The notes under the pieces were generated by a model that saw only the letters and a program-made list of their open reading frames with translations, did no database searches and was not told where the DNA came from. A DNA stretch of 64,000 nucleotides, from NCBI GenBank assembly GCA_018434355.1, contig JAHDPL010000020.1, forward strand, positions 182,255-246,254. The letters are read 5' to 3'. The position numbers and the translations under genes are program-made. Below are positions 8,793 through 43,297 of this stretch, in pieces. Origin of the DNA: Sporomusaceae bacterium. Lineage in GTDB: Bacteria > Bacillota > Negativicutes > UBA1444. The first letter of the stretch is position 1. Every line of letters begins with the position of its first letter.

Positions 8793-10196
8793 TTACCAGA
8801 GACCGACGATCTTCCACCAGAATGCGCCGAAGCCGATGAACACAACCAGGTTGACCAGCGAAATGATGAAACCGAGTTTCCACCAGGTCCCTTGCGGAAT
8901 ATAGCCCGAGCCGAAATAAATCGGCGCCGGTCCAGTCGCGTAGTGAGTGATGCCGCCGAACAGGGCGGAAATAACGCCCAGGCTCATCGCAGCCAAAAAC
9001 GGCGGCGCGCCGGCGCCCACCGCTACCGCCAGGAACGCGGCGTACATCGCGGTGACATGAGCCGACAGGCTGGCAAACGCATAATGCGAATACATATAGG
9101 CGATCAACAAAATCACCAGAGCGGTCATCCAGGGGATGCCGACGAGTGAACCGGCAATCAGCTTGGCGAACCAAGCGATGACGCCATACTTGGTCAGCGC
9201 ACTGGCTAGGCTGATCAGGCCGCCCATCCAGATTAGGGTATCCCAGGCGCCTTTTTCGGCCAGGATGTCTTTCCAGTCGATCGCCTTGCCGATCAGCATG
9301 ATGCCGACACCCAGCATGGCGACGATGGTTGCGTCGATTTTGGTGATGCTGCCGGTGGCCCAAAGGACCAGCGCCAACACGAACACGCCACTGACGATCT
9401 TTTCGCCGCTTGACATCGGTCCCATCTTTTCCAGTTCCTTGCGGGCGATTTCTTTCGCTTCCGGCGTCTTGTCGATTTCCGGCGGATAGATCTTATAAAG
9501 CAGATACGGCACAATTGCCAGCGAAATCAGGCCTGGCAGCACGGCAGCCAGCGCCCAGGTGCCCCAGCTGATCTGGACTTTGGCGGTTTGCAACGCCAGG
9601 ACCGCAACCAGCGTATTCGGCGCCACCGAAGTTAGAAACATCGCCGAAGTGATGGTGTTGCCCTGAAAAGCAGTCTTCATCAGATAAGCGCCGATTTTGC
9701 GCGACGAATCGCCCGGTTCGGAGCCGAAAGCCGAGCAGAGGCTGCGCACGATCGGATACATGATGCCGCCGGCACGGGCCGTGTTCGACGGGGTAGCCGG
9801 TGCGATGACCAGGTCGCTAAGTACCAGAGCGTAACCGAGTTTCAACGAGCTGTCGCCGATCGCGCCCATGATCTTGTAAGCGATCCGTTTACCGAGACCG
9901 GTTTTGATAAAGCCGAGCGCAAACAAAAACGCCGACACGATCAACCACATGATGCTCTGACCAAAGCCATTCAATGCTTCAGCCGGCGTCAGCGTCTTCG
10001 TCAAGCCGGCGATGCTGAGGGATATAAACGCAATCGCGCCAATGGGCAAAGGTTGAAGGATGAAACCGATGATGGTGGCGACAAAAATCGCCAGCAGATG
10101 CCAAGCCTGGGGCTTTAGCCCGGCCGGCGCAGGCAACAACCATAGGATAAGTCCGATAACAACCGCAATAAGTCCGTTTCTCAGGTCTTTGTTCAT
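8793..10196 (-). CDS. DASS-family (divalent anion:Na+ symporter / 2-oxoglutarate-malate translocator-like) dicarboxylate transporter
   Basis: 467-aa polytopic protein with two DASS-type SNT/ASN-like hairpin signatures (APATPSNTARAGG ... GPAPIYFGSGY). Confidence 0.8.
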   Translation of the reverse strand: MNKDLRNGLIAVVIGLILWLLPAPAGLKPQAWHLLAIFVATIIGFILQPLPIGAIAFISLSIAGLTKTLTPAEALNGFGQSIMWLIVSAFLFALGFIKTGLGKRIAYKIMGAIGDSSLKLGYALVLSDLVIAPATPSNTARAGGIMYPIVRSLCSAFGSEPGDSSRKIGAYLMKTAFQGNTITSAMFLTSVAPNTLVAVLALQTAKVQISWGTWALAAVLPGLISLAIVPYLLYKIYPPEIDKTPEAKEIARKELEKMGPMSSGEKIVSGVFVLALVLWATGSITKIDATIVAMLGVGIMLIGKAIDWKDILAEKGAWDTLIWMGGLISLASALTKYGVIAWFAKLIAGSLVGIPWMTALVILLIAYMYSHYAFASLSAHVTAMYAAFLAVAVGAGAPPFLAAMSLGVISALFGGITHYATGPAPIYFGSGYIPQGTWWKLGFIISLVNLVVFIGFGAFWWKIVGLW

Positions 10197-10371
10197 GAAT
10201 TCTCCCCCTTATATTTTTTCTTGTCCGTTTTGTTTCTTCGTTTGCCATGATATTTTTTTATCATGACAGGAAAAAACTGCAGAAAAAACTGGAATGAACC
10301 CCGAGGTAAAGACACCTGTCTACTGTTACTATAACATTCTGTCAGTTCAAATATCCAATAGATGACGAGAA

Positions 10372-10380
10372 TGATATAAT
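10372..10380 (+). promoter_or_regulatory. Extended -10 promoter element (TGaTATAAT) for the LysR gene, inside an AT-rich divergent intergenic region that is shared with the DASS transporter gene
   Basis: atgatataat lies 43 nt upstream of the ATG at 10423, and an RBS (agggaggga) follows it. Confidence 0.45.
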
Positions 10381-10422
10381 AAATAATTGTAATGATCCCA
10401 TGCTAACTTCAGGGAGGGACGT

Positions 10423-11325
10423 ATGGAAATCCGGCAATTGGAATACTTTGTTTCTGTGGTGGAAACCAATAGCTTTACCAAGGCGGCGGAAAAACAATAT
10501 GTCAGTCAGCCCTGCATCACTCACTCCATCCGCAAGCTGGAAGAAGAACTTGGCTTCGAACTGTTTGACCGCAGCCAGAAAAAGTCACCGTTGACGGATG
10601 AAGGCCGGCGATTCTATCTGCGCGCCTGCAATCTGCTGAATGAACTGCGCGACACGATGACGGAAATGAATGAACTGCGCAATCTGGCCCGTGGCACGAT
10701 CAACCTGGCCATCCCGCCGATGATCGGCAGTTGCCTGTTTCCGTATCTGTTCACCAGCTTTCAGACCCGCTACCCGCATCTGACGCTAAATGTCTGCGAA
10801 GAAGGGTCCTATTCGGCGCACCGGATGATCGAGCAGGAGGAGCTTGATCTCGGCATCATCATCTTGCCGCAGCACAATCCCGGCACGTTGGAAACCTTTT
10901 TCCTCACCCGGCAGGAAATCCTGCTGGCCGTCGCCAAAAACCATCGTCTGGCAAGTGCTTCTGCCGTGCCGTTTGCCGATTTGCGCCAGGAAAAATTCAT
11001 CCTGTTCAAGAGCAACTTTTTTCAACGGCACGCGATTTTGCAGCGCTGCCAGGACGAAGGAATCGAACCGGAAATCGTATTTAACTCCAGTCAGATCGAA
11101 ACGGTAAAATCGCTGGTTTCCCACGGCGTCGGCATCTCTTTCCTTATGCAGATGGCGTTGGAAGGACAGCCCGGCATCGCCGGCGTCTCGCTATATCCGC
11201 CGATCCATGTAAACATCGGCCTGGCCTGGAAAAAAGGCCGCCAGCTTTCTCCCTCGGCCAAGGCCTTTATCAATCTGGTATCGGCGCAGACAGAGGAAGC
11301 CCTGACCTTAAAAAAATGCCGCTGA
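10423..11325 (+). CDS. LysR-family transcriptional regulator
   Basis: The N-terminal HTH MEIRQLEYFVSVVETNSFTKAAEKQYVSQPCITHSIRKLEEELG is canonical for LysR. The gene is divergent from the transporter gene. Confidence 0.9.
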   Translation: MEIRQLEYFVSVVETNSFTKAAEKQYVSQPCITHSIRKLEEELGFELFDRSQKKSPLTDEGRRFYLRACNLLNELRDTMTEMNELRNLARGTINLAIPPMIGSCLFPYLFTSFQTRYPHLTLNVCEEGSYSAHRMIEQEELDLGIIILPQHNPGTLETFFLTRQEILLAVAKNHRLASASAVPFADLRQEKFILFKSNFFQRHAILQRCQDEGIEPEIVFNSSQIETVKSLVSHGVGISFLMQMALEGQPGIAGVSLYPPIHVNIGLAWKKGRQLSPSAKAFINLVSAQTEEALTLKKCR

Positions 11326-24753: not shown

Positions 24754-25629
24754 CTAATTCCCTTTTACATAAATGTTCTCAATTTCCCGGATTTTTGTCA
24801 AGCCGATCAGGTCATTGAATTGTTCGAACGTGATCATTTCCGGAATCAGGCTTGCCGTCGTACCGGTTTCCTTCAGCACGGTCATCAAGCGGGTCAGCGC
24901 CTTGGTCACCAGGTACGTCGACGCTGTCGGGAAAATCACCAAATCGTAACCGAGGTCTTGGAGTTCTTTCACCGGCAGGAACGGCGTCCGGCCACCCTCC
25001 ACCATGTTGGCCAAAACCGGAACCTTGAACGAAGTGGTGATCTGTTTCATTTCTTCAACAGATTCCGGCGATTCAATGAACAGGATATCCGCGCCGGCTT
25101 CCTCATAAGCTTTGGCCCGTTCCAGCGCCTCACCGATTCCATGTACGGTCCGCGCGTCAGTCCGGGCAATGATCATTAGGTCGGGGTCTGTACGCACATC
25201 GGCTGCGGCCTTGATTTTGCCGACCATTTCTTCTTTGGAGACGACCTGGCGACCGGTCATGTGACCGCACTTCTTCGGCGCTACCTGGTCTTCCAGCTGT
25301 ATCGCCGCCACACCGGCCTTTTCATATTCGCGCAGCGTCCGCATCACATTGACGGCGTTGCCGAACCCGGTGTCCGCGTCGGCAATTACCGGCACATTCA
25401 CGGCTTCAACGATATTCGACGCCCGGGCCACCATCTCCGTCAGCGTCAGCAGACCAACGTCCGGTTTCCCCAGATGGCTGGCCGCCTGGCCGTAACCGGT
25501 CATATATACCGCCGAAAAGCCAACCTGCTCGATAATTTTCGCTGTCAGGGCGTCGTGCGCGCCTGGCGCGACGACGATCCGGTTTCCTGTCATCATTTGT
25601 CTCAGCATTGTAGTTTTTCTCATAGTCAT
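24754..25629 (-). CDS. dml: Isocitrate-lyase/PEP-mutase-superfamily C-C lyase; candidate (2R,3S)-2,3-dimethylmalate lyase
   Basis: 291 aa with the catalytic loop KKCGH, the lyase type with Cys (not the mutase type). It is the last gene of the nicotinate-fermentation operon. Confidence 0.7.
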   Translation of the reverse strand: MTMRKTTMLRQMMTGNRIVVAPGAHDALTAKIIEQVGFSAVYMTGYGQAASHLGKPDVGLLTLTEMVARASNIVEAVNVPVIADADTGFGNAVNVMRTLREYEKAGVAAIQLEDQVAPKKCGHMTGRQVVSKEEMVGKIKAAADVRTDPDLMIIARTDARTVHGIGEALERAKAYEEAGADILFIESPESVEEMKQITTSFKVPVLANMVEGGRTPFLPVKELQDLGYDLVIFPTASTYLVTKALTRLMTVLKETGTTASLIPEMITFEQFNDLIGLTKIREIENIYVKGN

Positions 25630-27071
25630 TTTTCGCCCCCAGCTAATAATCCAAATTGTTGTTTGGCAAACCGTAGCGCTGCATCGGGATATTGTTGCGA
25701 CAACGCCCCCACGGCAAACATCAGGTAATCTTTGTCCATGATAAACCGTGGCTCTTGCGGCAGCAGAGAAATTCCCGGATTTTTGAACGCCTGTTCCAGA
25801 ATAAACTGCCGATCCGCCGCCGAGCTATGAGTAAATATGCCGCCGACTGCAATCACATGGGTAACTCGACGCAAATCGCGACCAATCGGGGTTCCCGGCA
25901 CAATCCCCATCACAGGGTTGAATTCCTGCGAAATATAACCTGCGTGGCGTTTCAGCGCCACTTCGATCGCGCTGGCTGCCAGCGCCAGGTCGAACGACTT
26001 GTCCCGGTCACTGGTGCTAATATGTTCCGGATTCTTTTCCAGCCAGGCAACGTATTCGGTCAGTTCCGTCGCTTCCTCTTCGCTTTTTCGGCCAAGTTTG
26101 GCCAGCACTCCCGCCGGTCCTACTGTTTCAACAATGCCGGTGGCGCTGATTCGCAGTCCCAGATTGCCTTCCACCGTGCGATAGGAAGGTTGTTTTTCGT
26201 TGGTCACAACCAGTCCTTTTTCCTCGATTGTCAGGTTTTCCAGTTCCGGCAACACCGAATGAATGTCGGTAGTCGCGCCGCCGATATCGACGACCAGGAC
26301 ATCGCCCACTCCATCTTGAACATAAGTGCCTTTGGCAAGCAATTCCGCCCCCATCAGCACAGCGCCCGGCGTCGGCGTCACTTTTCGGTTGGAAACGATG
26401 TCAATCAGCTTGTGCAACCCTTTAGCCCGCGTGATTTGCCGGATGAACTGCTCATGAATCGCTTCACGGGCCGGCTTGACTTTCAGTTCGTGAATCGTCG
26501 GCATCACATTGGGGACCCGGATATGACCGATTCCTGCCTCAGCAAGGATTTCGGCCGCTTCAGCCTGGGCCTCCTTGTTGCCGGCCAGGATCACTACCGC
26601 TTTGCCCCGCGCCTGCACGATAATCCGGGCATTGCTGATGACCGAGTCCCGGTCGCCGCCATCGGTGCCGCCAGCCAGCAAGATAATGTCAGGCTGAATT
26701 TCCATCAACACCTGCAACCGGTACTCCGGCAGATCTTCGGAGCTGATGATTTCCAGCACCCTGGCGCCGGCGCTCATCGCCACTTCTTTGGCAGCTTTGG
26801 CCGTCACGCGCGGCATGTAGCCGAGCGCTACCATCCGCAGGCCGCCGGCGGCGCTGCTGGTGGAAAATATTTGCGGTTCGTCTGCGATTGCCACGCCGGT
26901 TGTGGCCAAATTTTGCTTCGCCGCGGCAATGCCGCGCTCGATATCGTCGACGGTCGTAGATGCTTGCGCCCTGCCGGCCAGGCAAAGTTGGTTCCCTGCC
27001 ATGTGAAAACCGGCTACTTTCGTGTAGGTGCTGCCGACATCGAATACAAGCAGATTTGTCTCCATCGTCAT
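25626..27071 (-). CDS. GlmL/MutL-family protein (B12-mutase-associated ASKHA-fold reactivase/chaperone); candidate MgmL
   Basis: ASKHA N-terminus LLVFDVGSTYTKV and a second phosphate motif VVDIGGATTDI, about 480 aa in length. Lies directly downstream of the B12 mutase and isomerase genes. Confidence 0.65.
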   Translation of the reverse strand: MTMETNLLVFDVGSTYTKVAGFHMAGNQLCLAGRAQASTTVDDIERGIAAAKQNLATTGVAIADEPQIFSTSSAAGGLRMVALGYMPRVTAKAAKEVAMSAGARVLEIISSEDLPEYRLQVLMEIQPDIILLAGGTDGGDRDSVISNARIIVQARGKAVVILAGNKEAQAEAAEILAEAGIGHIRVPNVMPTIHELKVKPAREAIHEQFIRQITRAKGLHKLIDIVSNRKVTPTPGAVLMGAELLAKGTYVQDGVGDVLVVDIGGATTDIHSVLPELENLTIEEKGLVVTNEKQPSYRTVEGNLGLRISATGIVETVGPAGVLAKLGRKSEEEATELTEYVAWLEKNPEHISTSDRDKSFDLALAASAIEVALKRHAGYISQEFNPVMGIVPGTPIGRDLRRVTHVIAVGGIFTHSSAADRQFILEQAFKNPGISLLPQEPRFIMDKDYLMFAVGALSQQYPDAALRFAKQQFGLLAGGEK

Positions 27072-27081
27072 TGCCCTCCGG

Positions 27082-28215
27082 TTAGCTGTTGCGAACGAAC
27101 GCATATCCTTCCATCAATCTGCGGGCAGTCCGTGAAAACGCCACCCTGGTCAGCTGGCCATCGGCAAACTTCGCTTCGACGTCGATTACGCCGGCTGGAT
27201 GGCCGATCCGAATCAAATCGATCGAGTCAATGTGCGGGATCGCCTCATGCACAATCGTGCCGGGAATCTTGGCGGCTGCGCCGGTGCAGGCGGTGCCGGT
27301 CCCCGGATATGTCTTGTGCAGCACCTGCATGAACATCATCCGCGACAGAAAATCAACCTGGTCCTGTTCGATGGTCTTGCCGGAAGTAAAGTCGGTATAG
27401 CTGGCGCGCGGCGCAACAAAAGCAATCATCGGAAACGCCGGATTCTTTTGTGAAGCTTCCGCAGGATCTTTGGCCATGCCAAACAGCACCCCCGCTTTGG
27501 CCCGAATCTCCTCCAGCAGTTTCAGCAACGCAGCGTTGGCATTGACTTCCTGCGGCGTTTCGCGTCCAGTCATGCCGACGTCTTTGGCCCGGATGAACAC
27601 GCAAGGATTGGACACGTCGACCAAGGAAGCCTGAATCGGGCCGGCGCTGGTTTCAATCGTATCAATCGGGTTGCCTGTCGGCAGCAGTTTGCCGCTGACC
27701 GCGCCGACCGTGCCGGAAAAATCCATCATGATCTTGGCGCCGGTTCCCGGTACGCCATCGATGCTGCAATCGCCGCAGACTTTCGCCATTCCGTCTTCAG
27801 TCGGAACGTCGGCAATCAGCAGTTTTCCGGTGTTGACATTGTGAATACGCACCCGGGTCATCGCGCCGGTTGCAGTCACCAGTCCCTCGTCGATCGCATA
27901 GGGTCCGACCGCAGAAGAAATGTTGCCGCAGTTGCCGGAGTAATCAATGTAAGGCTGATTGATGCTTACTTGACCGAAAGTATAGTCGACGTCGGCGTCC
28001 GGATGGGTCGAGCGGGCGATGATTGCCAGTTTGCTTGTCAGCGGGTCGGCGCCGCCGAGTCCGTCGATTTGCCGCACGTCCGGGCTACCGAAAATTTCCA
28101 AAATCATTTTGTCGCGCTCTGCAATATCCTGCGGCAAGTGGTTCGGTTTCAAAAAAACCGCTTTGCTGGTGCCGCCCCGCATCAGAGTGCAAGGAATCCG
28201 TCTTGAATCTCTCAT
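27082..28215 (-). CDS. mii: PrpF/AcnD-accessory-family isomerase; candidate 3-methylitaconate delta-isomerase
   Basis: 377 aa containing [17 protein letters not shown] and the second Cys motif [15 protein letters not shown] of the PrpF/Mii fold. Confidence 0.7.
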
Positions 28216-34261: not shown

Positions 34262-34840
34262 TCAGCGTTGTCCGTCTTCGCCTTTGATTTCGTGTTTTTG
34301 CAAACCGCCAATTCGGGGATGCGGGCGTCCGCCGGAAGTCACGACCACCGAAACCACAATCTCGTCGGCTTTCGGGGCATCATGCATCCGCACTTCCATC
34401 GCATCATAGTGCGAACGGACAAATGCAGCGTCTTTAAAATGAACCGGTACATCAAGCGGAGTTCCTGGTCCGCCAAGCTTCTTCGCCGAAGGAATGATCG
34501 CCTTGCCGCCATTCACTGCATCGCGCATCGGTTTGCCAAGTTTGGGATGCAGAATGGCTGCGCCGTGTTCCAGCTCGCCGTCAACACCAATAATTGCTCC
34601 CTTGCCGTAGCTTTCCGCTTCCGCCGGAGCGATTCCCATTGCTTCCACCGCTTTCTGCGCCAGGAAGCCGCCCAGATACTCTCCGACATCGGTTAGTTCG
34701 CTCAAGTCTTCCACATAGCGCCCGGCAAACGGGTTCTTTATCACGGCGGATGCCGAGCATTTCTTGATTGGTTTTTCCAGAGATTTCTGTCCGTCGGCCC
34801 GAACCTCTTCGACAACAACCACTACTTTTCTGATTTCCAT
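34262..34840 (-). CDS. Conserved hypothetical protein (about 190 aa; resembles the DUF1185 'amino-acid synthesis' family) embedded in the nicotinate-fermentation operon
   Basis: Good aagggggaag RBS, non-repetitive globular composition, and co-directional with hgd (downstream) and the ApbE-like gene (upstream). Confidence 0.5.
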   Translation of the reverse strand: MEIRKVVVVVEEVRADGQKSLEKPIKKCSASAVIKNPFAGRYVEDLSELTDVGEYLGGFLAQKAVEAMGIAPAEAESYGKGAIIGVDGELEHGAAILHPKLGKPMRDAVNGGKAIIPSAKKLGGPGTPLDVPVHFKDAAFVRSHYDAMEVRMHDAPKADEIVVSVVVTSGGRPHPRIGGLQKHEIKGEDGQR

Positions 34841-34883: not shown

Positions 34884-35723
34884 TTAACTAAACAACGTTT
34901 CCGGATACGACCGGTTCGCCCCTTGCAGATGCAGTGTTGCGCCCTTGATGATCCGCTTGTCCACGTTGTCGCGCAATCTGGTCATCACCTGCTGCATGCT
35001 TTGCTGCACTTCCTGCGGCGTCAGTCTGCCGACTGACTCGGTCACCATCAGCTCGGGGATGTCCGTTTCCGGATCAATCAAACGGGCTAAACCACGAACA
35101 ACCGCCGAACTATCGATATAACTGGCGTTTGCCAGTGAAGTGGCGAACGCGTCGGCAATAGCGCATGATTTTGCCAACACCGTCACCGATTCCATGACGC
35201 CGCAGGTAAAACTGCGACCGCCCAAGCCGCTGGTGGCGATTCCGCCGATTCCGTCACCGGACGAAAGCTGAACCAGTTTGCTGAATCCTTCACCGCCAAT
35301 TTCCGGCATTACCCCGACTTTTGTCGTTTCTTCCGCCAGCAGGCGGATGGCGACATCGCCGCCATTATTCACCAGCACTTTGGTTGCCCCTTGTTGTTGC
35401 AACCAATCGGCGACCTTGTCGGCAAACGCGCCGGCCACTGCCGCCATCGGCGTCAATTCCTTGTCTGTGGTGGCTTGCACCGCCTGCCACATCGTAACGG
35501 CGACCCCGGATAGTTCTCCCGGTTCGCATTGGGTCCAGCTCCGTTTCAGAAACTTCAGCTGCGGCCCCAGTTCAGTCAGGCAATCAACCGCTATCTGACT
35601 CGCATCGCGACACAACTCAGTCAGCGGCTCACCATCCCGTGATGCGGCAATCACCATCGATATCGGTCCGTAGTCCAAAAACAGCTTGCCTGGACCCACT
35701 TCGGTCAACCACTGCGAATCCAC
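34884..35723 (-). CDS. ApbE-superfamily (UPF0280-like) protein; candidate flavin transferase/maturase
   Basis: The track ORF overlaps hnr by 123 nt and was trimmed to the GTG 8 nt after the hnr stop, preceded by a GGGAGA RBS. An alternative ATG lies at 35657. Contains GIATSGLGG and AIADAFATSLAN, which resemble the ApbE ATSG and ADAxATA signatures. Confidence 0.5.
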   Translation of the reverse strand: MDSQWLTEVGPGKLFLDYGPISMVIAASRDGEPLTELCRDASQIAVDCLTELGPQLKFLKRSWTQCEPGELSGVAVTMWQAVQATTDKELTPMAAVAGAFADKVADWLQQQGATKVLVNNGGDVAIRLLAEETTKVGVMPEIGGEGFSKLVQLSSGDGIGGIATSGLGGRSFTCGVMESVTVLAKSCAIADAFATSLANASYIDSSAVVRGLARLIDPETDIPELMVTESVGRLTPQEVQQSMQQVMTRLRDNVDKRIIKGATLHLQGANRSYPETLFS

Positions 35724-35728
35724 CGGGA

Positions 35729-37222
35729 TTATGCTTTCTCCCTTATTTGATCCACGGTTCTGATCTGACTCATATGGCCACCGATTGCCTCGTAATCGGA
35801 TTTTCGCAGCGTGTATTCCACCGGCGCCACCGTTGCCGGGGTCGGCACCCAAGTAAACGCTTTGGAAACGACTTTTTCCGCATCAACCATGAAATTGATG
35901 CCGCCGCCTGGCAGCACATAGGTCGGTGCGCCGCCAATCGTCAGGTTTACTATGCCGGCGTGAACCGCCCGCGTCAACGCCAACGGCTGGGTCGTAACCC
36001 CTGCCCGTGCGCTACCGCCGGTCCCGCCGGTGTAAATCACCGAAACCCTTGACTCTTCACAGTTGTCGGCAATCCGGTTCACCAGACGTTTTACCGGATC
36101 GCTCATTTCCAGCGAAGCCACAGTTCCGTCCGGCTGCACTTCAAACAATGCCGCTTTTTGTCCGGTAGTTTCCGTGACCAGTATTTTCATCCCCGCTTTG
36201 GCAATTGTCATATCGACCGATTTAATTGCTTCGATCGGGTGCTCGATATGAGTGCCGCCCCAGCCATGACCGTGTTCGCCAAAGTAGCGACTGCGGGTGC
36301 TCTTGCGGGCGTTTGGCACAACCCCGCTCCAGCTCATGCCGACTTCCGCGCCGGCCAAATGCTCCGAAAACAATCCGACAACATGGTGATCCAGTATAAT
36401 CGCTTCATCCACCACACCGACGAAATCCTTGGCAAACAGGCCGATTGTCGCACTGCCGCAGCCGACCCGCATCTTGGTGTCGGCAACGCCATTGATCACC
36501 GGCCGTTCTCCAGCCTGCAGTTCCAGTGTCGCGCCGTCCACCACCGTCAACTTGACTTTTTCGCCGTTGGCAAAGTCGACGATGGTACGGGCCACGATAA
36601 ATCCATCAGCGCCGGTCAACAAATTGGCTCCGCCGATGGAAAGCATCTTCGAGCCATATTCCTCGGTATCGACCATGCCGACAACCTTGCCGTCTCGCTT
36701 GATTTTTGCCCCTTCGGCGCCGATATGGTAATTGGTGTCGATTTTGACCTTAACGCCGCTATAGCTGAGCGGCGCTTCAGTCACAACAGTCACGACCTCA
36801 ACCCCGTCGACGACGCCGGAGACAATGTGCGGCGCCGGTTTGCAGCAAGGATAGGCTGTTCCGGCCCCTGCCGCCGTAATCAAAGGTTGGGCAATCGTGC
36901 CGTCAGATTTTTGACCAACGTAGTCGATCACCAACGCGCGATTACGAACAAGTTTTCCCTGACGGTTTTCATAACGGCGGCATGCGCCGGTAAATCCGTC
37001 CTGGATTTCACACTGCACCGGACAGGAACTGCATTTGATCGTGCCGGTTGCCTGTTCGGAGCGGGAAATCGCCTGAAATTTACAAACGCGGATGCAGATA
37101 TTACATTGGACGCAACGATCGCTGGCGACAGCCTTGCGCTCAATGAGGCTCAGCGCGCCGACCGGGCACTCCCGGACGCACATGCCGCAACCGACGCAGG
37201 TCGCGAGATTTATTTTCACCAT
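35729..37222 (-). CDS. hnr: Ferredoxin-domain oxidoreductase; candidate 6-hydroxynicotinate reductase
   Basis: 497 aa. The N-terminus has 2x[4Fe-4S] ferredoxin motifs (CVGCGMCVRECP, CVQCNICIRVC) plus a third Cys cluster (CSSCPVQCE). Sits between enamidase and the ndh genes, as in E. barkeri. Confidence 0.6.
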   Translation of the reverse strand: MVKINLATCVGCGMCVRECPVGALSLIERKAVASDRCVQCNICIRVCKFQAISRSEQATGTIKCSSCPVQCEIQDGFTGACRRYENRQGKLVRNRALVIDYVGQKSDGTIAQPLITAAGAGTAYPCCKPAPHIVSGVVDGVEVVTVVTEAPLSYSGVKVKIDTNYHIGAEGAKIKRDGKVVGMVDTEEYGSKMLSIGGANLLTGADGFIVARTIVDFANGEKVKLTVVDGATLELQAGERPVINGVADTKMRVGCGSATIGLFAKDFVGVVDEAIILDHHVVGLFSEHLAGAEVGMSWSGVVPNARKSTRSRYFGEHGHGWGGTHIEHPIEAIKSVDMTIAKAGMKILVTETTGQKAALFEVQPDGTVASLEMSDPVKRLVNRIADNCEESRVSVIYTGGTGGSARAGVTTQPLALTRAVHAGIVNLTIGGAPTYVLPGGGINFMVDAEKVVSKAFTWVPTPATVAPVEYTLRKSDYEAIGGHMSQIRTVDQIREKA

Positions 37223-37249: not shown

Positions 37250-38407
37250 TTACATTTTGGGGTTGCGCACGGCCGGCGGCGTATTGCGGCTGACCTTCAC
37301 CTTGATTTCTCCGTCGATAATGACCATCGCGACGCCAGGAACATCGCCGGCTTCGATCGCAGTCAACGCATCAGTGCCAATCGAACCCATCGGCGCATCC
37401 ATAATAACAAAATCCGCCTCTTTGCCGACTTCAATCATCGCGGTATTTAGTCCATAAGCTTTTGCTGTATTGCCGGTAGCCATCGCAATGCATTCGGCGG
37501 CGGCAATGCCGGAAACGCTGGAAATTTGGCAGATGTTGCGCAAGATGCCCAGCGGAATAATGCCGGTACCAGAAGGTGAGTCATTGCCAAAAACCAGACG
37601 ACCCAACTGATTCTTCACTTTCAATTGCCGCGCCACATAATCAGCCACTTTAGGATTGCCGCACTGGACAATCTCCAGCATGAAGTCGGTCTCATTAATC
37701 AGTCGGTCCACTTCGGACGGAGCAATCGCCGTAGGTCCGCCATTGATATGCGAAACGACCGTCGGTTTGGTTTTCATTACATCGTCGGCGGTAACGGTAG
37801 AGCTGCCGGGAATCGAGGTCCCGCCGCAGTGCATCTGGACCTTGAAGCCATGCTTTTTGGCCCATTCGACCATCGGCGCAGCATCAGCCGGTTTCTTCAC
37901 GCCGCCCAGACCCACTTCGCCAACCAGCCAAACGCCATTGGCCGCCATTTCAGCAAAATCGGCTTCGGTCAGCCCCGGTTCCAAAATTACTGCTCCAGCA
38001 TGCATCTTGACACCGGACGGGCGCGCATTATAGTACGATTTACTGGCTACAACCGCCAACGCCTTGACGCCTGCGGGATCTTTCGGACGACCGGGAAAAT
38101 GGGCTTCCCCTGCGGAAATCATCGTCGTGACGCCGCCATGTAGAGAACTGTCAATATAATCAAGCGTCTTTTGCCGGGGTGTAAAATCGCCAATCACCGG
38201 ATGCACATGCGAATCAATCAAGCCGGGCGTAACTGTGGCGCCATTGGCGTCAATCACTTTCAGCTCGGGATTTTGCGCAACCAGTTCCGCACCGCCGATA
38301 GCGGCGATTTTTTTGTCAACAACAACGATTGTGTTGCCTGCCAGCACCGGACACTCTATTTTTCCACTTACAATTGTCCCAATATTGGTGATAACCATCG
38401 AGCTCAT
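37250..38407 (-). CDS. ena: Amidohydrolase-superfamily enamidase (1,4,5,6-tetrahydro-6-oxonicotinate hydrolase)
   Basis: The true start is MSSMVITNIGTIVSG after an aagggggaag RBS. Contains TPGLIDSHVHP, MHCGG and VSHINGG metal-ligand motifs of the bimetal amidohydrolase fold. Confidence 0.75.
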   Translation of the reverse strand: MSSMVITNIGTIVSGKIECPVLAGNTIVVVDKKIAAIGGAELVAQNPELKVIDANGATVTPGLIDSHVHPVIGDFTPRQKTLDYIDSSLHGGVTTMISAGEAHFPGRPKDPAGVKALAVVASKSYYNARPSGVKMHAGAVILEPGLTEADFAEMAANGVWLVGEVGLGGVKKPADAAPMVEWAKKHGFKVQMHCGGTSIPGSSTVTADDVMKTKPTVVSHINGGPTAIAPSEVDRLINETDFMLEIVQCGNPKVADYVARQLKVKNQLGRLVFGNDSPSGTGIIPLGILRNICQISSVSGIAAAECIAMATGNTAKAYGLNTAMIEVGKEADFVIMDAPMGSIGTDALTAIEAGDVPGVAMVIIDGEIKVKVSRNTPPAVRNPKM

Positions 38408-38475
38408 CATTTCTTCCCCCTTCGAAGTGTGGGCGGGTCTGTCCCCACAGACCCGCACCATCGCATTGAATTTAA

Positions 38476-39510
38476 TTAGTTGTCTAGTTTCATGTCACCG
38501 TATTTGATCATGCCTTTTTTCCGCATGAATTCAGAAATCAACAGAGTCAGGATTGCCGGTAAAACAAAGTGCAACATGACAACCTTAAATATCACGTCTC
38601 CACCCATACCCATGGCTTCAAAAGTGCCGAACTGACCTACAAGACCGCTGGTCCCCATACCGGCGCCTGCCGGCACGTTTTTCATCGGCCAGATCGTTGT
38701 GGCAATCGGGCCCAGTATCGCCCCAGCCAAAGTGGGAGGCACCAGAATCATCGGACTACGCACTATATTGGGCACCTGCAGCATCGAAGTTCCCAGTCCT
38801 TGAGAAATCAGTCCGCCCCAGCCATTCTCACGATAACTGGCCACAGCAAAACCAACCATTTGCGCCGCACAACCGACGGTCGCAGCACCGGCCGCCAGCC
38901 CGCCCAATTTCAGCATCATCGCCAACGCGGCGCTGGAGATCGGCGCGGTGAGGATCAGGCCCATCATAACCGAGACAAGGATTCCCATCGGAATCGGATG
39001 CAGTTCGGTCGCTTTCATGATCAACGCACCCAAGGCAACCATCAAGGTGTTAATGGTCGGACCGATGAATACGCCGGTTGCGACGCCGGTGATAATCGTG
39101 ACCATTGGGGTAACGATGATGTCAACTTTGGTTTCTTTGGATACCAGCTTGCCGAACTCAGCGCCGATAACAGCGGCTACGAAACAACCAGCAGGTCCGC
39201 CGAGCTTGGCGCCGGCCATACCGGTGATGGTCGAGGCAAACAGGACCAGCGGAGGCGCTTTTAGGCCAAACGCAACCGACACGCCGATAGCGGGTCCCAT
39301 CATCGCCATGGCTTGCAGACCGTAATCCGTCAGAAGTTTGATGCCAGTCTTATCGCCAATGACTTTGAGAATAAGGCCGACGATAAGGGACGAAAAGAGT
39401 CCGAGCGCCATTGCGCCAAGTGCTTCGATACCATACCGATGCAAAGAGAACACGATGTTCTTCCGCTGAAGGAAACTTTGCTTTTCAGCTGCCGCAGGTG
39501 TAGTTGACAT
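38476..39510 (-). CDS. Polytopic membrane protein, PTS-EIIC-like/PfoR-type permease; candidate nicotinate (or intermediate) transporter
   Basis: 344 aa with about 10 TM segments rich in Gly/Ala. Lies inside the nicotinate-fermentation operon between ena and ndhM. Confidence 0.45.
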   Translation of the reverse strand: MSTTPAAAEKQSFLQRKNIVFSLHRYGIEALGAMALGLFSSLIVGLILKVIGDKTGIKLLTDYGLQAMAMMGPAIGVSVAFGLKAPPLVLFASTITGMAGAKLGGPAGCFVAAVIGAEFGKLVSKETKVDIIVTPMVTIITGVATGVFIGPTINTLMVALGALIMKATELHPIPMGILVSVMMGLILTAPISSAALAMMLKLGGLAAGAATVGCAAQMVGFAVASYRENGWGGLISQGLGTSMLQVPNIVRSPMILVPPTLAGAILGPIATTIWPMKNVPAGAGMGTSGLVGQFGTFEAMGMGGDVIFKVVMLHFVLPAILTLLISEFMRKKGMIKYGDMKLDN

Positions 39511-39549: not shown

Positions 39550-40605
39550 TTATCCCTGGAGTTGTAGTTTAGCCAATACTTTGTCCGCGGTAATGGGGAG
39601 GTCGGTAATTCTGACACCGACTGCATTGTAAACGGCATTGGCAATAGCAGCAGCCGTTGGAATCAGAGCCGGTTCACCGACGCCCTTTGCTCCGAAAGGC
39701 CCGGTCACGGCAGGGTCTTCCACAATGATCGACTGAATCGGCGGCACGTCGAGCGATGTGGGCAGAACATACGTGGTAAAGTTTGCTGTCGCCACGTTCC
39801 CCTGCTTGACCTGGACTTCTTCCATCAATGCATAACCTAATCCGATTGCACACCCCCCTTCAATTTGGCCTTCCACGTTTTGCGGGTGAATGGCCTTGCC
39901 CACATCGTGGGCCGCAACGATTTGTATCACATCAACAACTCCGGTCTCCGTATCGACTTCCACTTCCACCACCTGTGTAGCATAAGCATAGGTCGCATAC
40001 GGCCTGCCTTGACCTGTTTCCATGTCAAGACCGGTAGTGTCGGGGTTGAACCAGCCATGCCCGAGCGATAGTTTTCCTTTGGCCCGGCATTTGGCGATGC
40101 AATCTACAATACTGATCGATTTGGCGTCGGTCCCCGGCGTCAGACCCAGCGCGATTTGGCACTCGGCCTGGCAATCGACCAGATCTTTGGATTTGTCGGA
40201 CTGGGTTCGCACGGTCAACATCCGATCCGCTGCAACAATATCGGCTACACCAACGCCGAGCGCCTCGGCTGCAGCTTCCACTATGACGGATTTGGCCTGT
40301 TGCGCTGCCATCCGCACCGCATTGCCGGAGATATAGGTCTGGCGGCTGGCCGACGATGCCCCCGCATCCGGCGTTACACCCGTATCGGCAGAAACGACCC
40401 GGACATCGCCGATTTTGACGCCTAGCTCTTCGGCGGCAATCTGGGCCAGCGCGGTAGTCGAACCTTGTCCGATATCGGCGCACCCTGTCAGCACCAGCAC
40501 AGTGCCGTCATCCAGTAAATCCACATAAGCGCCTGCCGGATTTGGCAAGCCGGTGTTTCCGATTCCATACCACATGGAGGCCATGCCGATTCCTCGTTTT
40601 TTCAT
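39550..40605 (-). CDS. ndhM: Molybdenum-hydroxylase Mo-binding subunit, C-terminal half (split large subunit); candidate nicotinate dehydrogenase medium subunit
   Basis: 351 aa of the XDH/CODH family C-terminal region (GQGSTTALAQIAAEELG ... GEPALIPTAAAIANAV). Confidence 0.8.
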   Translation of the reverse strand: MKKRGIGMASMWYGIGNTGLPNPAGAYVDLLDDGTVLVLTGCADIGQGSTTALAQIAAEELGVKIGDVRVVSADTGVTPDAGASSASRQTYISGNAVRMAAQQAKSVIVEAAAEALGVGVADIVAADRMLTVRTQSDKSKDLVDCQAECQIALGLTPGTDAKSISIVDCIAKCRAKGKLSLGHGWFNPDTTGLDMETGQGRPYATYAYATQVVEVEVDTETGVVDVIQIVAAHDVGKAIHPQNVEGQIEGGCAIGLGYALMEEVQVKQGNVATANFTTYVLPTSLDVPPIQSIIVEDPAVTGPFGAKGVGEPALIPTAAAIANAVYNAVGVRITDLPITADKVLAKLQLQG

Positions 40606-40615
40606 GTTCTCCCTC

Positions 40616-41887
40616 CTACCAGTTCAGTTCCATAGTCTTCTTCGCACCTGCGGTTGCGGCTTCCAGGGTTTCTACGATGCCCACACTGTCTTTCAGCTCA
40701 GTTCCCGTTCCAGTGAACGAGCCTGGGCGCAGGGCATTGATCAAACGAATTTTCAGCGGCGAAACGCCGAGTTTTTCAGCCAGGATATCCATCTGGCTTT
40801 CATGGGCGAATGCGACCTGCGGCACGCCAAAGCCGCGCATCGCGCCAGCCTGGGGATTGTTGGTATAGACGGTATAGGCGTCGACTTTCACGTTGGGGAC
40901 TTCATACGGCCCCATCACGTGAACTGCCGAGCGGGTCAAAGTACCTGGACCGTAGGAGGCGTAAGCGCCGGTGTCGCCGATGATGCTTGCTTCGAACGCC
41001 AGCAGTTTTCCATTGGCATCGCTGCCGCTCTTCAGTTTCATAATGAAGGGATGACGCTTTACACTGTTGGCAATCGACTCGTGCCGACTGTAAATCATTT
41101 TGACCGGACGCCGCGTCGCCACCGCCAACAAGCCTAGATGCACCTGAACCGAAACATCCAATTTGCCGCCGAAGCCGCCGCCGGTCGTCGCTTGGATCAC
41201 CCGGACCCGGTTAAGGCCGATGTTGAGATTGCGGGCGATTTCTTTCGCGTCATAATGGGGGTTTTGCGTACAGACCCAAACTGTGACAATATCGCCATCC
41301 AGCTTTGCCACGCCCGCTTCCGGCTCGATATAGGCATGTTCGGCCATTTGTGTCTGGTAGTCTTGTTCGACGATGACCGCACACTCGGCAAAGGCTTTTT
41401 CCACGTCGCCGCGGCGAATTTTTCGGACGGCCAGCACATTGCCTTTTTCATAGATTTTCGGCGCATCATCCTTCATCGCTGCGACCGGATCAAACACCGC
41501 CGGCAATTCATCCACCTTGACTTCGATCAAACGCAGAGCTTGTTCAGCAATTTCTTCGGTTTCCGCAGCGACCAGTGCAATCGGGTCACCGATTTTACGG
41601 ATTTTCTGACCATTTTTCACCAAGACCGGCTCATCTTTAATGATGATGCCGCTGCTGTTCGAACCGGGGATATCGTCGCCCGTCAATACGGAGACAACTC
41701 CAGGCAGCGCTTTTGCCTTGCCCGTGTCGACCGACAGCAGAACGCCGTGGGCAACCTTGCTGCGCAGTGTCTTGCCGTAAATCATGCCGGGGAACTGAAT
41801 GTCGGCAGCGTATTTTGCCACGCCGAGAACTTTTTCGACGGCATCCAGTTTTTGGACGGAATGGCCGATGACTTTGTAATCACTCAC
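40616..41887 (-). CDS. ndhL: Molybdenum-hydroxylase Mo-binding subunit, N-terminal half; candidate nicotinate dehydrogenase large subunit
   Basis: The start was re-placed at a GTG that overlaps the ndhS stop (GTGAGTGA), after a GGAGG RBS. The protein begins VSDYKVIGHSVQKLDAVEKVLG. Confidence 0.8.
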   Translation of the reverse strand: MSDYKVIGHSVQKLDAVEKVLGVAKYAADIQFPGMIYGKTLRSKVAHGVLLSVDTGKAKALPGVVSVLTGDDIPGSNSSGIIIKDEPVLVKNGQKIRKIGDPIALVAAETEEIAEQALRLIEVKVDELPAVFDPVAAMKDDAPKIYEKGNVLAVRKIRRGDVEKAFAECAVIVEQDYQTQMAEHAYIEPEAGVAKLDGDIVTVWVCTQNPHYDAKEIARNLNIGLNRVRVIQATTGGGFGGKLDVSVQVHLGLLAVATRRPVKMIYSRHESIANSVKRHPFIMKLKSGSDANGKLLAFEASIIGDTGAYASYGPGTLTRSAVHVMGPYEVPNVKVDAYTVYTNNPQAGAMRGFGVPQVAFAHESQMDILAEKLGVSPLKIRLINALRPGSFTGTGTELKDSVGIVETLEAATAGAKKTMELNW

Positions 41888-42353
41888 GGTCTTCACCTCC
41901 ACCTTGGCAGGCCACTTTTTCAATGGCGTTGACGATTTTGGTATAACCGGTGCAACGGCAGAGATTGCCGGAAATATGCCGGGAAATTTCTTCGCGTTTT
42001 GGATGCGGATTGACATCCAGCAACGATTTGGCGCTGAGCAACATTCCTGGCGTACAAAAGCCGCACTGTACCGCTCCCTCGGCGATAAACGCCTCTTGCA
42101 GCGGATGCAGTTTGTCATAGTCGCCAAGTCCTTCAACGGTTACGATATCATGCCCGTCGGCTTTTACCGCCAACATCAGGCAGGAATTCACATTTTTCCC
42201 GTCGACCAAAACGGTGCAGGCGCCACAGTCTCCTTCGCCGCAACCGACTTTGGTTCCTGTCAGTCCCAGCCGTTCCCGCAGCAAATCGACAAATAGCAAC
42301 TCCGGCTCGACTTCCAGTTCAATCGGTTTACCATTCAAAACAAATTTAATCAT
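41880..42353 (-). CDS. ndhS: [2Fe-2S] small subunit of the molybdenum hydroxylase
   Basis: The true start is MIKFVLNGKPIELEV. Contains CGEGDCGACTV and CGFCTPG ... CRCTGY motifs. Confidence 0.85.
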   Translation of the reverse strand: MIKFVLNGKPIELEVEPELLFVDLLRERLGLTGTKVGCGEGDCGACTVLVDGKNVNSCLMLAVKADGHDIVTVEGLGDYDKLHPLQEAFIAEGAVQCGFCTPGMLLSAKSLLDVNPHPKREEISRHISGNLCRCTGYTKIVNAIEKVACQGGGEDRE

Positions 42354-42357
42354 TCGT

Positions 42358-43230
42358 TTACTCACAAACGCACACCTCCATAGCCTGCTTCGTCGCCGCT
42401 TCCAAACACCGCTGCACAGTAACTCGCGCCAATTTTCCCCGGTGCGTTGCAGTACAACGGACGTCATCAATCGGTCGGACGCTTTGTTCGGCTTGCAACC
42501 CGGCTTCGGCAAACACTGCCGGTTCCGGTTTGCGACCGACCAACCACTTTTCTGTCTCGTACAGACGAACCGGCGTCGGACCGACCGATCCCAAAGCAAT
42601 GCGCGCTGCAGTAATTACGCCGCCCTGCACGCGTACCCAGGCCGCTCCATTGACAATCGAGCAGGCCAGCGCCTTGCGTTTGCCAAATTTGGCGAATGCC
42701 GCGCCTTCCCCTGCAGCAACCGGCGAAACATGGATTCCGGCGATATATTGGCCCGATTTTAGGCAAGTCCTGCCAGGTCCGACAAAAACTTTATCCAAAG
42801 GCAGATTTTCTGAGCCATTCGCGCTATTTAGCTGTACTTTTGCGTCAAGCGCCAACAATGCCGGTACAGTATCGGCCGCCGGCGAAGCATTGCCGATATT
42901 GCCGCCTACGGTTCCTGCATTGCGGATTTGCGGCGATCCCACTTCCGAAGCCGCCAGGCAGAGCGCGGCTGTTTTTTTGTTCATCACAGGCGAATCCATC
43001 AATTCCCTGTGCGTGACCAGCGGCCCGATCCAAAGAGAGCCGGCTGTTTCGCGAATCCCCTTGAGACTTTCAATCCCGCTGACGTCGACCAAATTGCGCG
43101 GAGAAATCAACTTCTCCTTCATCTTGACCATGACGTCGGTCCCGCCCGCCAAAAGGCAGTAGTCTTCCATCCCGTTCAAAAGAGCCGCCAATTCAGTTTC
43201 GCTTTTGGGACTGTGGTAATTGAACTGCAT
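42358..43230 (-). CDS. ndhF: FAD-binding subunit (CoxM/XdhB-like) of the molybdenum hydroxylase
   Basis: The true start is MQFNYHSPKS. Contains the FAD motif LLAGGTDVMV and AGTVGGNIGNASP. Confidence 0.85.
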   Translation of the reverse strand: MQFNYHSPKSETELAALLNGMEDYCLLAGGTDVMVKMKEKLISPRNLVDVSGIESLKGIRETAGSLWIGPLVTHRELMDSPVMNKKTAALCLAASEVGSPQIRNAGTVGGNIGNASPAADTVPALLALDAKVQLNSANGSENLPLDKVFVGPGRTCLKSGQYIAGIHVSPVAAGEGAAFAKFGKRKALACSIVNGAAWVRVQGGVITAARIALGSVGPTPVRLYETEKWLVGRKPEPAVFAEAGLQAEQSVRPIDDVRCTATHRGKLARVTVQRCLEAATKQAMEVCVCE

Positions 43231-43297
43231 TTTGTCACCCCACAACTACTTTTTTTGTTTTTACTGTTTTGTCCATTTTGACTCGTTCTGTTAATAT

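Follow-up and report, generated by a model that had tools for sequence, protein, structure and literature searches.

The FAD:protein FMN transferases ApbE, Ftp, and FmnB (Pfam PF02424; PDB entries 6nxi, 7mgt, 7esa, and 1vrm) are among the closest described systems, and their conserved catalytic residues are Ser241, His257, and Asp285 in V. cholerae numbering (PMC12052999). All validated ApbE substrates carry the motif D-x-x-[S/T]-G-A-[S/T]. Cytoplasmic ApbEs exist, and the cytoplasmic ApbE of the Klebsiella pneumoniae fumarate reductase, together with the ApbE domains fused to trypanosomatid fumarate reductases, offers a precedent for intracellular flavinylation (PMC12052999). The client in these cases is a soluble reductase acting on an alpha,beta-unsaturated carboxylate, and the transferase is encoded beside it or fused to it. 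Both the ApbE and the target motif, which lies in an FMN_bind domain, are canonical there, whereas the enzyme and the client are both non-canonical in the locus described here. Succinate dehydrogenase relies on a dedicated accessory protein for covalent flavin attachment, SdhE/SDHAF2. This one-client accessory factor resembles the role proposed below, but its fold is unrelated, and it aids an autocatalytic 8-alpha-histidyl-FAD link, not the transfer of FMN from FAD.

The UPF0280 family (COG2122, DUF375) is widespread and structurally solved (DVU1097, PDB 2o34), with no known biochemical activity. Genetic work on the family is limited to DvMF_0044 of Desulfovibrio and MA1715 of Methanosarcina, where it points to homocysteine synthesis and sulfide assimilation together with DUF39, with no flavin; the methanogen COG2122 protein carries a Cys-rich C-terminal motif (PMC9431491). 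A 2025 review of ApbE (PMC12052999) names neither 6-hydroxynicotinate reductase (Hnr) nor UPF0280, and the flavinylation of Hnr by a UPF0280 protein is therefore not established knowledge.

Here, we describe a UPF0280 protein encoded directly behind an Hnr homolog in the window, the whole 64,000-nucleotide stretch analyzed. The hnr gene is located in a nicotinate fermentation cluster of the E. barkeri type, and its product is 62-98% identical to proteins named 6-hydroxynicotinate reductase in the sources. The genes concerned are as follows.

35729..37222, minus strand: Hnr homolog, 497 aa, the presumed client
35724..35731, minus strand: hnr stop codon TAA (35731-35729) and the 5-nt spacer before the UPF0280 GTG
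34884..35723, minus strand: UPF0280 ("AbpE_bact") ApbE-fold protein, 279 aa, GTG start, predicted to be cytoplasmic
34262..34840, minus strand: AA_synth/DUF1185 protein, 192 aa, 43 nt downstream of the UPF0280 gene (PF06684, 246.5 bits)

The initial annotation correctly placed an open reading frame of about 280 aa after hnr but gave the distance between the two as 8 nt. Since the hnr TAA lies at 35731-35729 and the GTG at 35723-35721, the spacer is 5 nt. The UPF0280 gene ends with a TAA at 34886-34884, and a GGGAG is found 15-19 nt upstream of its start.

The proposed coupling of this gene to hnr proved to be tight and almost universal. Of 80 hnr loci, which come from at least six phyla, 77 have a UPF0280 gene immediately after hnr on the hnr strand. 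In two of the other three the contig ends there; with contig ends excluded, the arrangement holds for 77 of 78 evaluable loci, including Firmicutes, Desulfobacterota, Proteobacteria, and Acidobacteria. Across these 77 loci, the predicted UPF0280 start follows the hnr stop at a median distance of 5 nt, 65 fall within +/-40 nt, and overlaps of 1 or 4 nt between the hnr stop and the nearest UPF0280 start codon are frequent. Conversely, hnr is just upstream in 49 of 57 metagenome UPF0280 loci. The two genes are probably co-transcribed and translationally coupled. Because UPF0280 sits behind hnr in almost every hnr-bearing bacterium, a dedicated Hnr helper is probable, and we regard a dedicated accessory role as well supported. 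The sole hnr locus with room for a UPF0280 gene but without one (L044, Granulosicoccaceae) contains in that space, as read by eye, a short open reading frame that includes hydrophobic stretches, along with what looks like a gene on the other strand. The AA_synth gene follows UPF0280 in most loci, which makes it the third gene conserved in the hnr module; the PDB entries that match it (2qtp and 3byq) are uncharacterized.

Membership in the ApbE/UPF0280 superfamily, as initially annotated, is borne out by Pfam, NCBIfam, and hhalign, none of which returned a match to an unrelated family. The profile check suggested at that stage gave 30.7 bits against Pfam ApbE (PF02424), above the gathering cut-off of 25.6 and covering only positions 125-248 of the 266 in the model. 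In precomputed tables, the ApbE match of the homologs is graded "faint" or "weak" beside PF27030, which all close homologs of the window protein carry. The strongest match is to NCBIfam NF003322 (E = 2.6e-66, residues 10-275), at 223.7 bits against an equivalog cut-off of 290, and alphaproteobacterial members reach 384-418 bits. The short UPF0280 models NF003321, NF003323, and NF003324 (238-250 aa) score only 65-70 bits here, with cut-offs of 262-275. As judged from the sequence, the family match of the protein and its motifs is far above chance.

The window protein contains every invariant of the Hnr-linked subfamily (G19, P20, G98, G121, G122, D123, S165, G166, R170, S171, D191, T195, and D221), and the following segments bear on its relationship to ApbE.

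35355..35369, minus strand: NNGGD, residues 119-123, invariant, equivalent to the GG(D/E/N) strand of ApbE
35217..35243, minus strand: GIATSGLGG, residues 161-169, in which S165 corresponds to ApbE Ser241 of the TSG motif (hhalign)
35211..35216, minus strand: R170-S171, labeled invariant, where UPF0280 lacks the 19-residue ApbE loop that holds the catalytic His257
35133..35162, minus strand: AIADAFATSL, residues 188-197, aligned to ApbE ADAxsT, in which D191 corresponds to ApbE Asp285

Both signatures named in the initial annotation, GIATSGLGG and AIADAFATSL, are present, and across 156 members no other part of the family is better conserved. S165, G166, D191, and T195 are each kept in at least 95% of these, with individual values of 99% for S165, 99% for D191, and 98% for T195; R170 and S171 are kept in 96% and 97%, respectively. 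A profile-profile comparison by hhalign aligns UPF0280 with ApbE at a probability of 97.1% (E = 5e-11), over residues 93-203 only, and places TS165G on TSG and AD191AFAT on ADAxsT. An earlier HMMER pairwise alignment that had placed ApbE ATSGDY on SSGDG is superseded, as the profile-profile alignment and the strand pattern of the model pair ATSG with ATSG. UPF0280 thus retains counterparts of two of the three ApbE catalytic residues (S165 and D191) and shows the double T-fold architecture of ApbE, and D191 and T195 form a putative Mg2+/pyrophosphate site.

The third catalytic residue sets UPF0280 apart from ApbE, Ftp, and FmnB. The ApbE loop Y-x-H-I-x-D-P-x-T-G, which holds the general base His257, is replaced by a 19-residue gap in the profile alignment, and a search for a conserved His in the 156 subfamily members found none (best column, 26%). 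UPF0280 is also about 50 residues shorter than the ApbE-type enzymes, and its helical insertion is cut to about 30 residues in our reading of the secondary structure of the predicted model. Its N-terminus (VDSQWLTEVGPGKLF) shows no hydrophobic signal and no lipobox Cys, whereas an LxxC lipobox is visible in several canonical ApbEs in the alignment, a family whose members are usually, though not always, secreted lipoproteins. The lack of a signal peptide and lipobox suits a cytoplasmic client.

The Hnr-linked proteins also form a different subfamily from the UPF0280/COG2122 proteins of homocysteine and sulfide metabolism (DVU1097, DvMF_0044, and MA1715). They run on for about 45 residues more at the C-terminus and lack a conserved Cys, and the structure of 2o34 has a His where the Hnr-linked subfamily has R170. 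Their probable partner is Hnr, and that of the COG2122 type is DUF39 (COG1900) with NIL/ferredoxin; homologue searches across the 163 related loci recovered nicotinate-cluster proteins only, and none of the few other neighbors scanned against Pfam was DUF39.

Hnr itself is a ferredoxin-dependent flavoenzyme with no recognizable flavin domain and no solved relative. The E. barkeri enzyme reportedly contains a covalently bound flavin. Our literature search found no published link type or origin for this flavin. Beyond the Fe-S region, residues 64-497 have no Pfam match even at E <= 10, the DUF39 family PF01837 included, and hence no known flavin-binding domain, and the predicted model (pLDDT 92.9) has no solved structural neighbor outside the Fe-S region. 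This combination makes a special cofactor-insertion helper plausible. A helper role would also suit the E. barkeri pathway, in which all nine enzymes have reportedly been assigned without a UPF0280 gene. The segments of Hnr considered here are listed below.

36980..37222, minus strand: Fe-S region, a 2x[4Fe-4S] ferredoxin domain (residues 1-58) and a four-Cys motif (C64, C67, C71, and C81)
36527..36538, minus strand: D229-G-A-T232 within VVDGATLELQ (residues 227-236), the site proposed earlier and rejected here
36446..36463, minus strand: G254-C-G-S-A-T259, a Gly-rich loop before helix 256-267 of the model, a candidate phosphate-binding or flavin-attachment loop
35999..36019, minus strand: G402-G-S-A-R-A-G408, a second invariant Gly-rich loop, with S404 at a helix N-terminus

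The initial annotation had likened VVDGATLELQ to the (S/T)GAT target of ApbE and proposed its Thr as the flavinylation site. The segment is present, but it falls outside the minimal motif [S/T]GA[S/T] because Asp fills the first position, and it is not conserved: among 81 Hnr homologs, 26 have Thr232 (32%) and 10 have the Asp (12%), so the resemblance is no more than chance. The full motif D-x-x-[ST]-G-A-[ST] occurs in none of the 81 Hnr sequences, and [ST]GA[ST] occurs anywhere in only one of them. The canonical target motif is likewise absent from the window open reading frames of at least 100 aa, and a search for a canonical ApbE near hnr found none, either in the window or at about 160 related loci. 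Unlike the clients of ApbE, Ftp, and FmnB, Hnr has no FMN_bind, DUF2271, or DUF3570 domain. GCGSAT is invariant in 81 of 81 Hnr homologs, a count that is biased because this pattern was one of the two used to fetch the loci.

We tentatively favor the explanation that the UPF0280 protein is a maturation factor for Hnr, one that binds a nucleotide cofactor, likely FAD, and installs the covalent flavin at a non-canonical site. The protein would bind the cofactor at a Mg2+/pyrophosphate site made up of S165, D191, T195, and D123 and would then install the flavin reported for the E. barkeri enzyme. Hnr would receive the flavin at a site other than the canonical ApbE motif, and a residue other than the ApbE histidine would serve as the catalytic base. 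Candidate residues for a phosphoester link are the invariant S257 and T259 of GCGSAT and S404, while C255, C388, H280, and H288 are candidates for an 8-alpha or C6 link. We infer Hnr as the client, FAD as the ligand, and a covalent flavin as the product. The suggestion of a new accessory function for Hnr therefore survives in part: the family assignment and the near-universal coupling argue for a dedicated accessory factor, but the DGAT site proposed with it is not conserved. A flavin transferase role, which we infer from these patterns, is plausible and would require a site and a mechanism that depart from the canonical ones. The lack of a canonical motif in Hnr, the deleted His257 loop, and the lack of a conserved His in UPF0280 count against flavin transfer, as do the short reach of the profile alignment (residues 93-203), the reduced helical insertion, and the COG2122 genetics, in which no flavin figures. 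Many covalent flavoproteins also flavinylate themselves, which counts against the need for a transferase.

The gene-coupling data also fit a Hnr-specific partner of another kind, a reading that we consider somewhat unlikely. This could be an assembly chaperone, a transient or loose subunit, or a protein that inserts a cofactor other than a flavin or inserts one non-covalently. Such a protein could, for example, use an ApbE-like nucleotide/Mg2+ site for the nucleotide-dependent loading of FMN/FAD or of the Fe-S domain, with no covalent bond formed. This would agree with the retention of the Mg2+/pyrophosphate motifs alongside the loss of the catalytic His loop, with the lack of a canonical target motif in Hnr, and with the conserved AA_synth gene that travels with the hnr-UPF0280 pair and suggests a multi-component module. 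Against this reading, purification of Hnr from E. barkeri is said to have yielded a single polypeptide species, and the apparent Hnr-UPF0280 fusions considered as Rosetta-stone evidence (P0420, P0471, P0490, P0491, and P0498) are out-of-frame, Arg/Ala-rich frameshift artifacts in high-GC contigs.

It is less likely still that the protein is an enzyme or binding protein for a small molecule of nicotinate catabolism, in which the T-fold pocket would hold 6-hydroxynicotinate, THON, or a nucleotide. A tautomerase or isomerase, a substrate delivery protein, or an FAD pyrophosphatase like Ftp of T. pallidum would be possible roles. However, the published pathway from nicotinate to 2-formylglutarate reportedly needs no extra enzyme. 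The adjacency is also specific to hnr, with stop and start codons that often overlap, and the conserved residues are those of the phosphoryl-transfer site of ApbE. Finally, the protein could act in sulfur trafficking or persulfide relay for the Fe-S clusters of Hnr, in the manner of MA1715 and DvMF_0044 of COG2122. This reading draws on the shared UPF0280 family and would suit both the Fe-S nature of Hnr and the COG2122 genetics of sulfide assimilation and homocysteine synthesis with a ferredoxin-domain protein, but we judge it highly improbable given that no Cys is conserved in the 156 Hnr-linked members (best column, 17%), the methanogen-type Cys-rich C-terminal motif is absent, and the subfamily belongs to a separate NCBIfam model (190-418 bits for NF003322 versus 52-97 bits for the three shorter models).

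Returning to the maturation factor that we favor, the one-to-one operon pairing could test ApbE-type flavinylation of cytoplasmic clients without [S/T]GA[S/T]. The hnr-UPF0280 pair could further reveal what chemistry UPF0280 proteins in general perform, among them the homocysteine-synthesis members of methanogens and sulfate reducers. In practical terms, heterologous Hnr function, and thus anaerobic and hybrid nicotinate pathways, may need co-expression of UPF0280. A much broader reading, which we think very unlikely, is that UPF0280/COG2122 constitutes a second, cytoplasmic, His-less branch of ApbE-fold cofactor transferases that mature ferredoxin-dependent reductases without a classical flavin domain. 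If so, Hnr would receive FMN from its linked subfamily on a non-canonical Ser/Thr, with the invariant GCGSAT and GGSxRxG loops as examples. The subfamilies of archaea and Desulfovibrio would play the equivalent part for the DUF39/COG1900 enzymes that make homocysteine and coenzyme M, and the "sulfur trafficking" phenotype would be a cofactor-maturation defect.

Eight of the 57 subfamily genes are located away from hnr, which counts against a Hnr-dedicated role. All eight keep every invariant residue, and for the seven that are comparable at full length, the closest relatives (49-79% identical) are Hnr-linked.

The UPF0280 protein encoded directly behind hnr probably serves Hnr, the 6-hydroxynicotinate reductase homolog, as a dedicated accessory or maturation protein. 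Every gene of the hnr region lies on the minus strand of the window, in a neighborhood matching the nicotinate fermentation cluster of Eubacterium barkeri, and homologs 62-70% identical to the window Hnr bear the name 6-hydroxynicotinate reductase in several sources. The genes are arranged as follows.

39550-43245, minus strand: ndhFSLM-like genes (E. barkeri-type cluster)
38476-39510, minus strand: PTS_EIIC_2 membrane protein gene, between ndhM and enamidase
37250-38461, minus strand: amidohydrolase (enamidase; E. barkeri-type cluster)
35729-37222, minus strand: hnr homolog, 497 aa, TAA stop at 35731-35729
34884-35723, minus strand: UPF0280 ORF, 279 aa, GTG start at 35723, end at 34884
34262-34840, minus strand: AA_synth/DUF1185 (PF06684) gene, after the UPF0280 gene
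Minus strand, after AA_synth/DUF1185: 3-hydroxyisobutyrate-dehydrogenase-like gene (hgd)
Minus strand, after hgd: serine-dehydratase-like gene (hmd)
Minus strand, after hmd: aconitase-type dmdAB, B12-dependent mutase, and isomerase (E. barkeri-type cluster)

The initial annotation rightly placed an ORF directly behind the hnr stop, but the gap to its start is 5 nt and not the claimed 8 nt. A GGGAG sequence precedes the GTG start by 15-19 nt, and gene callers also report the 279-aa product for the nearest UPF0280 homologs (95% identical).

An Hnr profile scan of one genome per species yielded 80 loci from Firmicutes, Desulfobacterota, Alpha- and Gammaproteobacteria, Acidobacteria, Myxococcota, and other groups, and a same-strand UPF0280 gene lies downstream of hnr in 77 of them. 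In 65 of these 77 loci, the predicted UPF0280 start falls no more than 40 nt to either side of the hnr stop (median, 5 nt); commonly, the stop and the closest start codon share 4 or 1 nt. Two of the three remaining loci are contig ends, and the third has other DNA at this position. This locus (L044, Granulosicoccaceae, 9440-11160) is the sole one with space for a UPF0280 gene yet none; inspection by eye suggests a short ORF containing hydrophobic stretches, together with what looks like an opposite-strand gene, between hnr and AA_synth. Proteobacterial UPF0280 members score 384-418 bits on the NCBIfam model NF003322, above its cut-off, which identifies NF003322 as the Hnr-linked equivalog; the other three UPF0280 models (238-250 aa) give less than 100 bits.

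In the reverse scan, a UPF0280 profile was run against metagenome contigs, and hnr lies immediately upstream in 49 of the 57 loci with sufficient upstream sequence. The other eight proteins (L155, L116, L091, L098, L102, L104, L143, and L152) keep all invariant residues, and full-length comparison places seven of them nearest to Hnr-linked relatives (49-79% identity); the eight probably represent this same protein, encoded in clusters that have been rearranged. Neighbors of some include NdhLM, an isochorismatase-like protein with a TRAP transporter, CN_hydrolase, and an amidohydrolase (Amidohydro_3). AA_synth/DUF1185, encoded behind the UPF0280 gene in the window and in the majority of Hnr loci across all phyla, makes up a third conserved component of the hnr module; the homologs with solved structures, 2qtp and 3byq, are uncharacterized. 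In the 50% identity library, many of the cluster representatives matched as "Hnr" are Arg/Ala-rich mistranslations produced by frameshifts on high-GC contigs, and the apparent Hnr-UPF0280 fusions (representatives P0420, P0471, P0490, P0491, P0498, P0404, and P0440) only mimic fusions in this way, a caution for inference from fusions.

Membership in the ApbE/UPF0280 superfamily, first proposed from two motifs, was confirmed by HMM searches. The match to Pfam ApbE (PF02424) is barely above threshold (30.7 versus 25.6 bits) and covers model positions 125-248 only, while NF003322 matches end to end (E = 2.6e-66); precomputed annotations of homologs also include PF27030 ("AbpE_bact"). The assignment is sound because hhalign matches residues 93-203 to a canonical profile built from nine ApbE sequences of plasmid records (97.1% probability, E = 5e-11). 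The GIATSGLGG and AIADAFATSL signatures are real and fall on the correct elements of the profile alignment: GIATS165G on the TS*G motif and AD191AFAT195 on AD*AxsT, with NNGGD123 on the GGD/N strand. ApbE has conserved catalytic residues Ser241, His257, and Asp285 (V. cholerae numbering), and its Mg2+ sits at the FAD pyrophosphate (PMC12052999). The 19-residue His257 loop (Y-x-H-I-x-D-P-x-T-G-x-P) is absent from the aligned UPF0280 protein, which thus lacks one of three hallmark residues. Polar residues conserved among 156 subfamily members comprise D102, D123, D191, D221, R170, S165, S171, T91, T164, and T195; no column exceeds 26% His or 17% Cys. The helical insertion that separates the two T-fold halves appears reduced to roughly 30 residues, as we read the secondary structure of the model. 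Several canonical ApbEs in our alignment carry a signal peptide or lipobox, whereas the N-terminus of the UPF0280 protein has neither.

The observation of an ApbE-like gene behind hnr holds, except for the proposed target motif, which is refuted. VVDGATLELQ (Hnr residues 227-236) is poorly conserved among 81 Hnr sequences: Thr fills position 232 in 26 of them, with Arg in 14, Lys in 9, and Glu in 8, whereas at position 229 there are 41 with Gly and 10 with Asp. The validated ApbE substrate classes (FMN_bind, DUF2271, and DUF3570) all have [S/T]GA[S/T]. [ST]GA[ST] occurs once among all 81 sequences, D-x-x-[ST]-G-A-[ST] in none, and no window ORF of at least 100 aa contains the full motif. Any phosphoester flavinylation of Hnr would therefore necessarily use a non-canonical site. 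Invariant Gly-rich loops, G254-C-G-S-A-T259 (GCGSAT being one search pattern used in collecting the loci) and G402-G-S-x-R-x-G408, precede helices in the Hnr model, and we infer that these would be the first places to seek a flavin site.

Hnr combines a 2x[4Fe-4S] domain with a four-Cys motif (C64, C67, C71, and C81). Its model is confident (pLDDT 92.9); even at E ≤ 10, Pfam has no family matching residues 64-497, and the model has no solved structural neighbors except for Fe-S domains. Hnr thus has no recognizable flavin-binding domain, which makes a dedicated cofactor-insertion factor more plausible. An exhaustive profile search returned only 1359 cluster representatives, indicating a compact family. 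Proteobacterial Hnr proteins (L043-L080, Alphaproteobacteria and others) keep the four-Cys motif but lack the N-terminal ferredoxin domain, the match beginning at residue ~50-62, which implies a different electron donor in aerobes. In P0368 (982 aa) and P0371 (969 aa), the Hnr catalytic domain is naturally fused to an NAD(P)H module (Fer4_20 + Pyr_redox_2) resembling GltD/dihydropyrimidine dehydrogenase, an architecture that parallels dihydropyrimidine dehydrogenase.

We tentatively favor a mechanism in which the UPF0280 protein, with Mg2+, would take flavin from a nucleotide donor and put it onto a non-canonical Hnr site. In its favor are the ApbE fold, retention of the Ser/Asp/Thr site, the coupling of the two genes, and the covalent flavin that E. 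barkeri Hnr reportedly carries; against it stand the missing His loop and target motif and genetic work tying sister subfamilies to sulfur metabolism. In that published work, the COG2122/UPF0280 proteins DvMF_0044 (Desulfovibrio) and MA1715 (Methanosarcina) are genetically needed for homocysteine synthesis and efficient sulfide assimilation, along with DUF39 and a NIL/ferredoxin protein; a sulfur trafficking role has been proposed for them, and the authors state that ApbE homology stops short of the flavin-binding region. A persulfide relay is unlikely in the Hnr-linked subfamily, which has no conserved Cys. Both cases set a UPF0280 protein beside a ferredoxin-dependent reductive enzyme of obscure cofactor chemistry, a suggestive parallel. 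We found no literature linking Hnr or UPF0280 to flavinylation, including the 2025 ApbE review (PMC12052999). If correct, flavin transfer to Hnr would add a new variant to ApbE-type flavinylation and give UPF0280 its first biochemical function.

Two other genes of the cluster merit mention. The PTS_EIIC_2 membrane protein (38476-39510), whose gene recurs in Firmicutes nicotinate clusters (L003, L007, L010, L011, L039, and L082), may be a nicotinate transporter. The gene at 25626-27104 (minus strand), adjoining those for methylitaconate isomerase and B12-dependent 2-methyleneglutarate mutase, encodes 492 aa that include a DIGGATTD motif; by our reading of the sequence, its product resembles MutL-type partners of B12 mutases and could act as a reactivase or chaperone.
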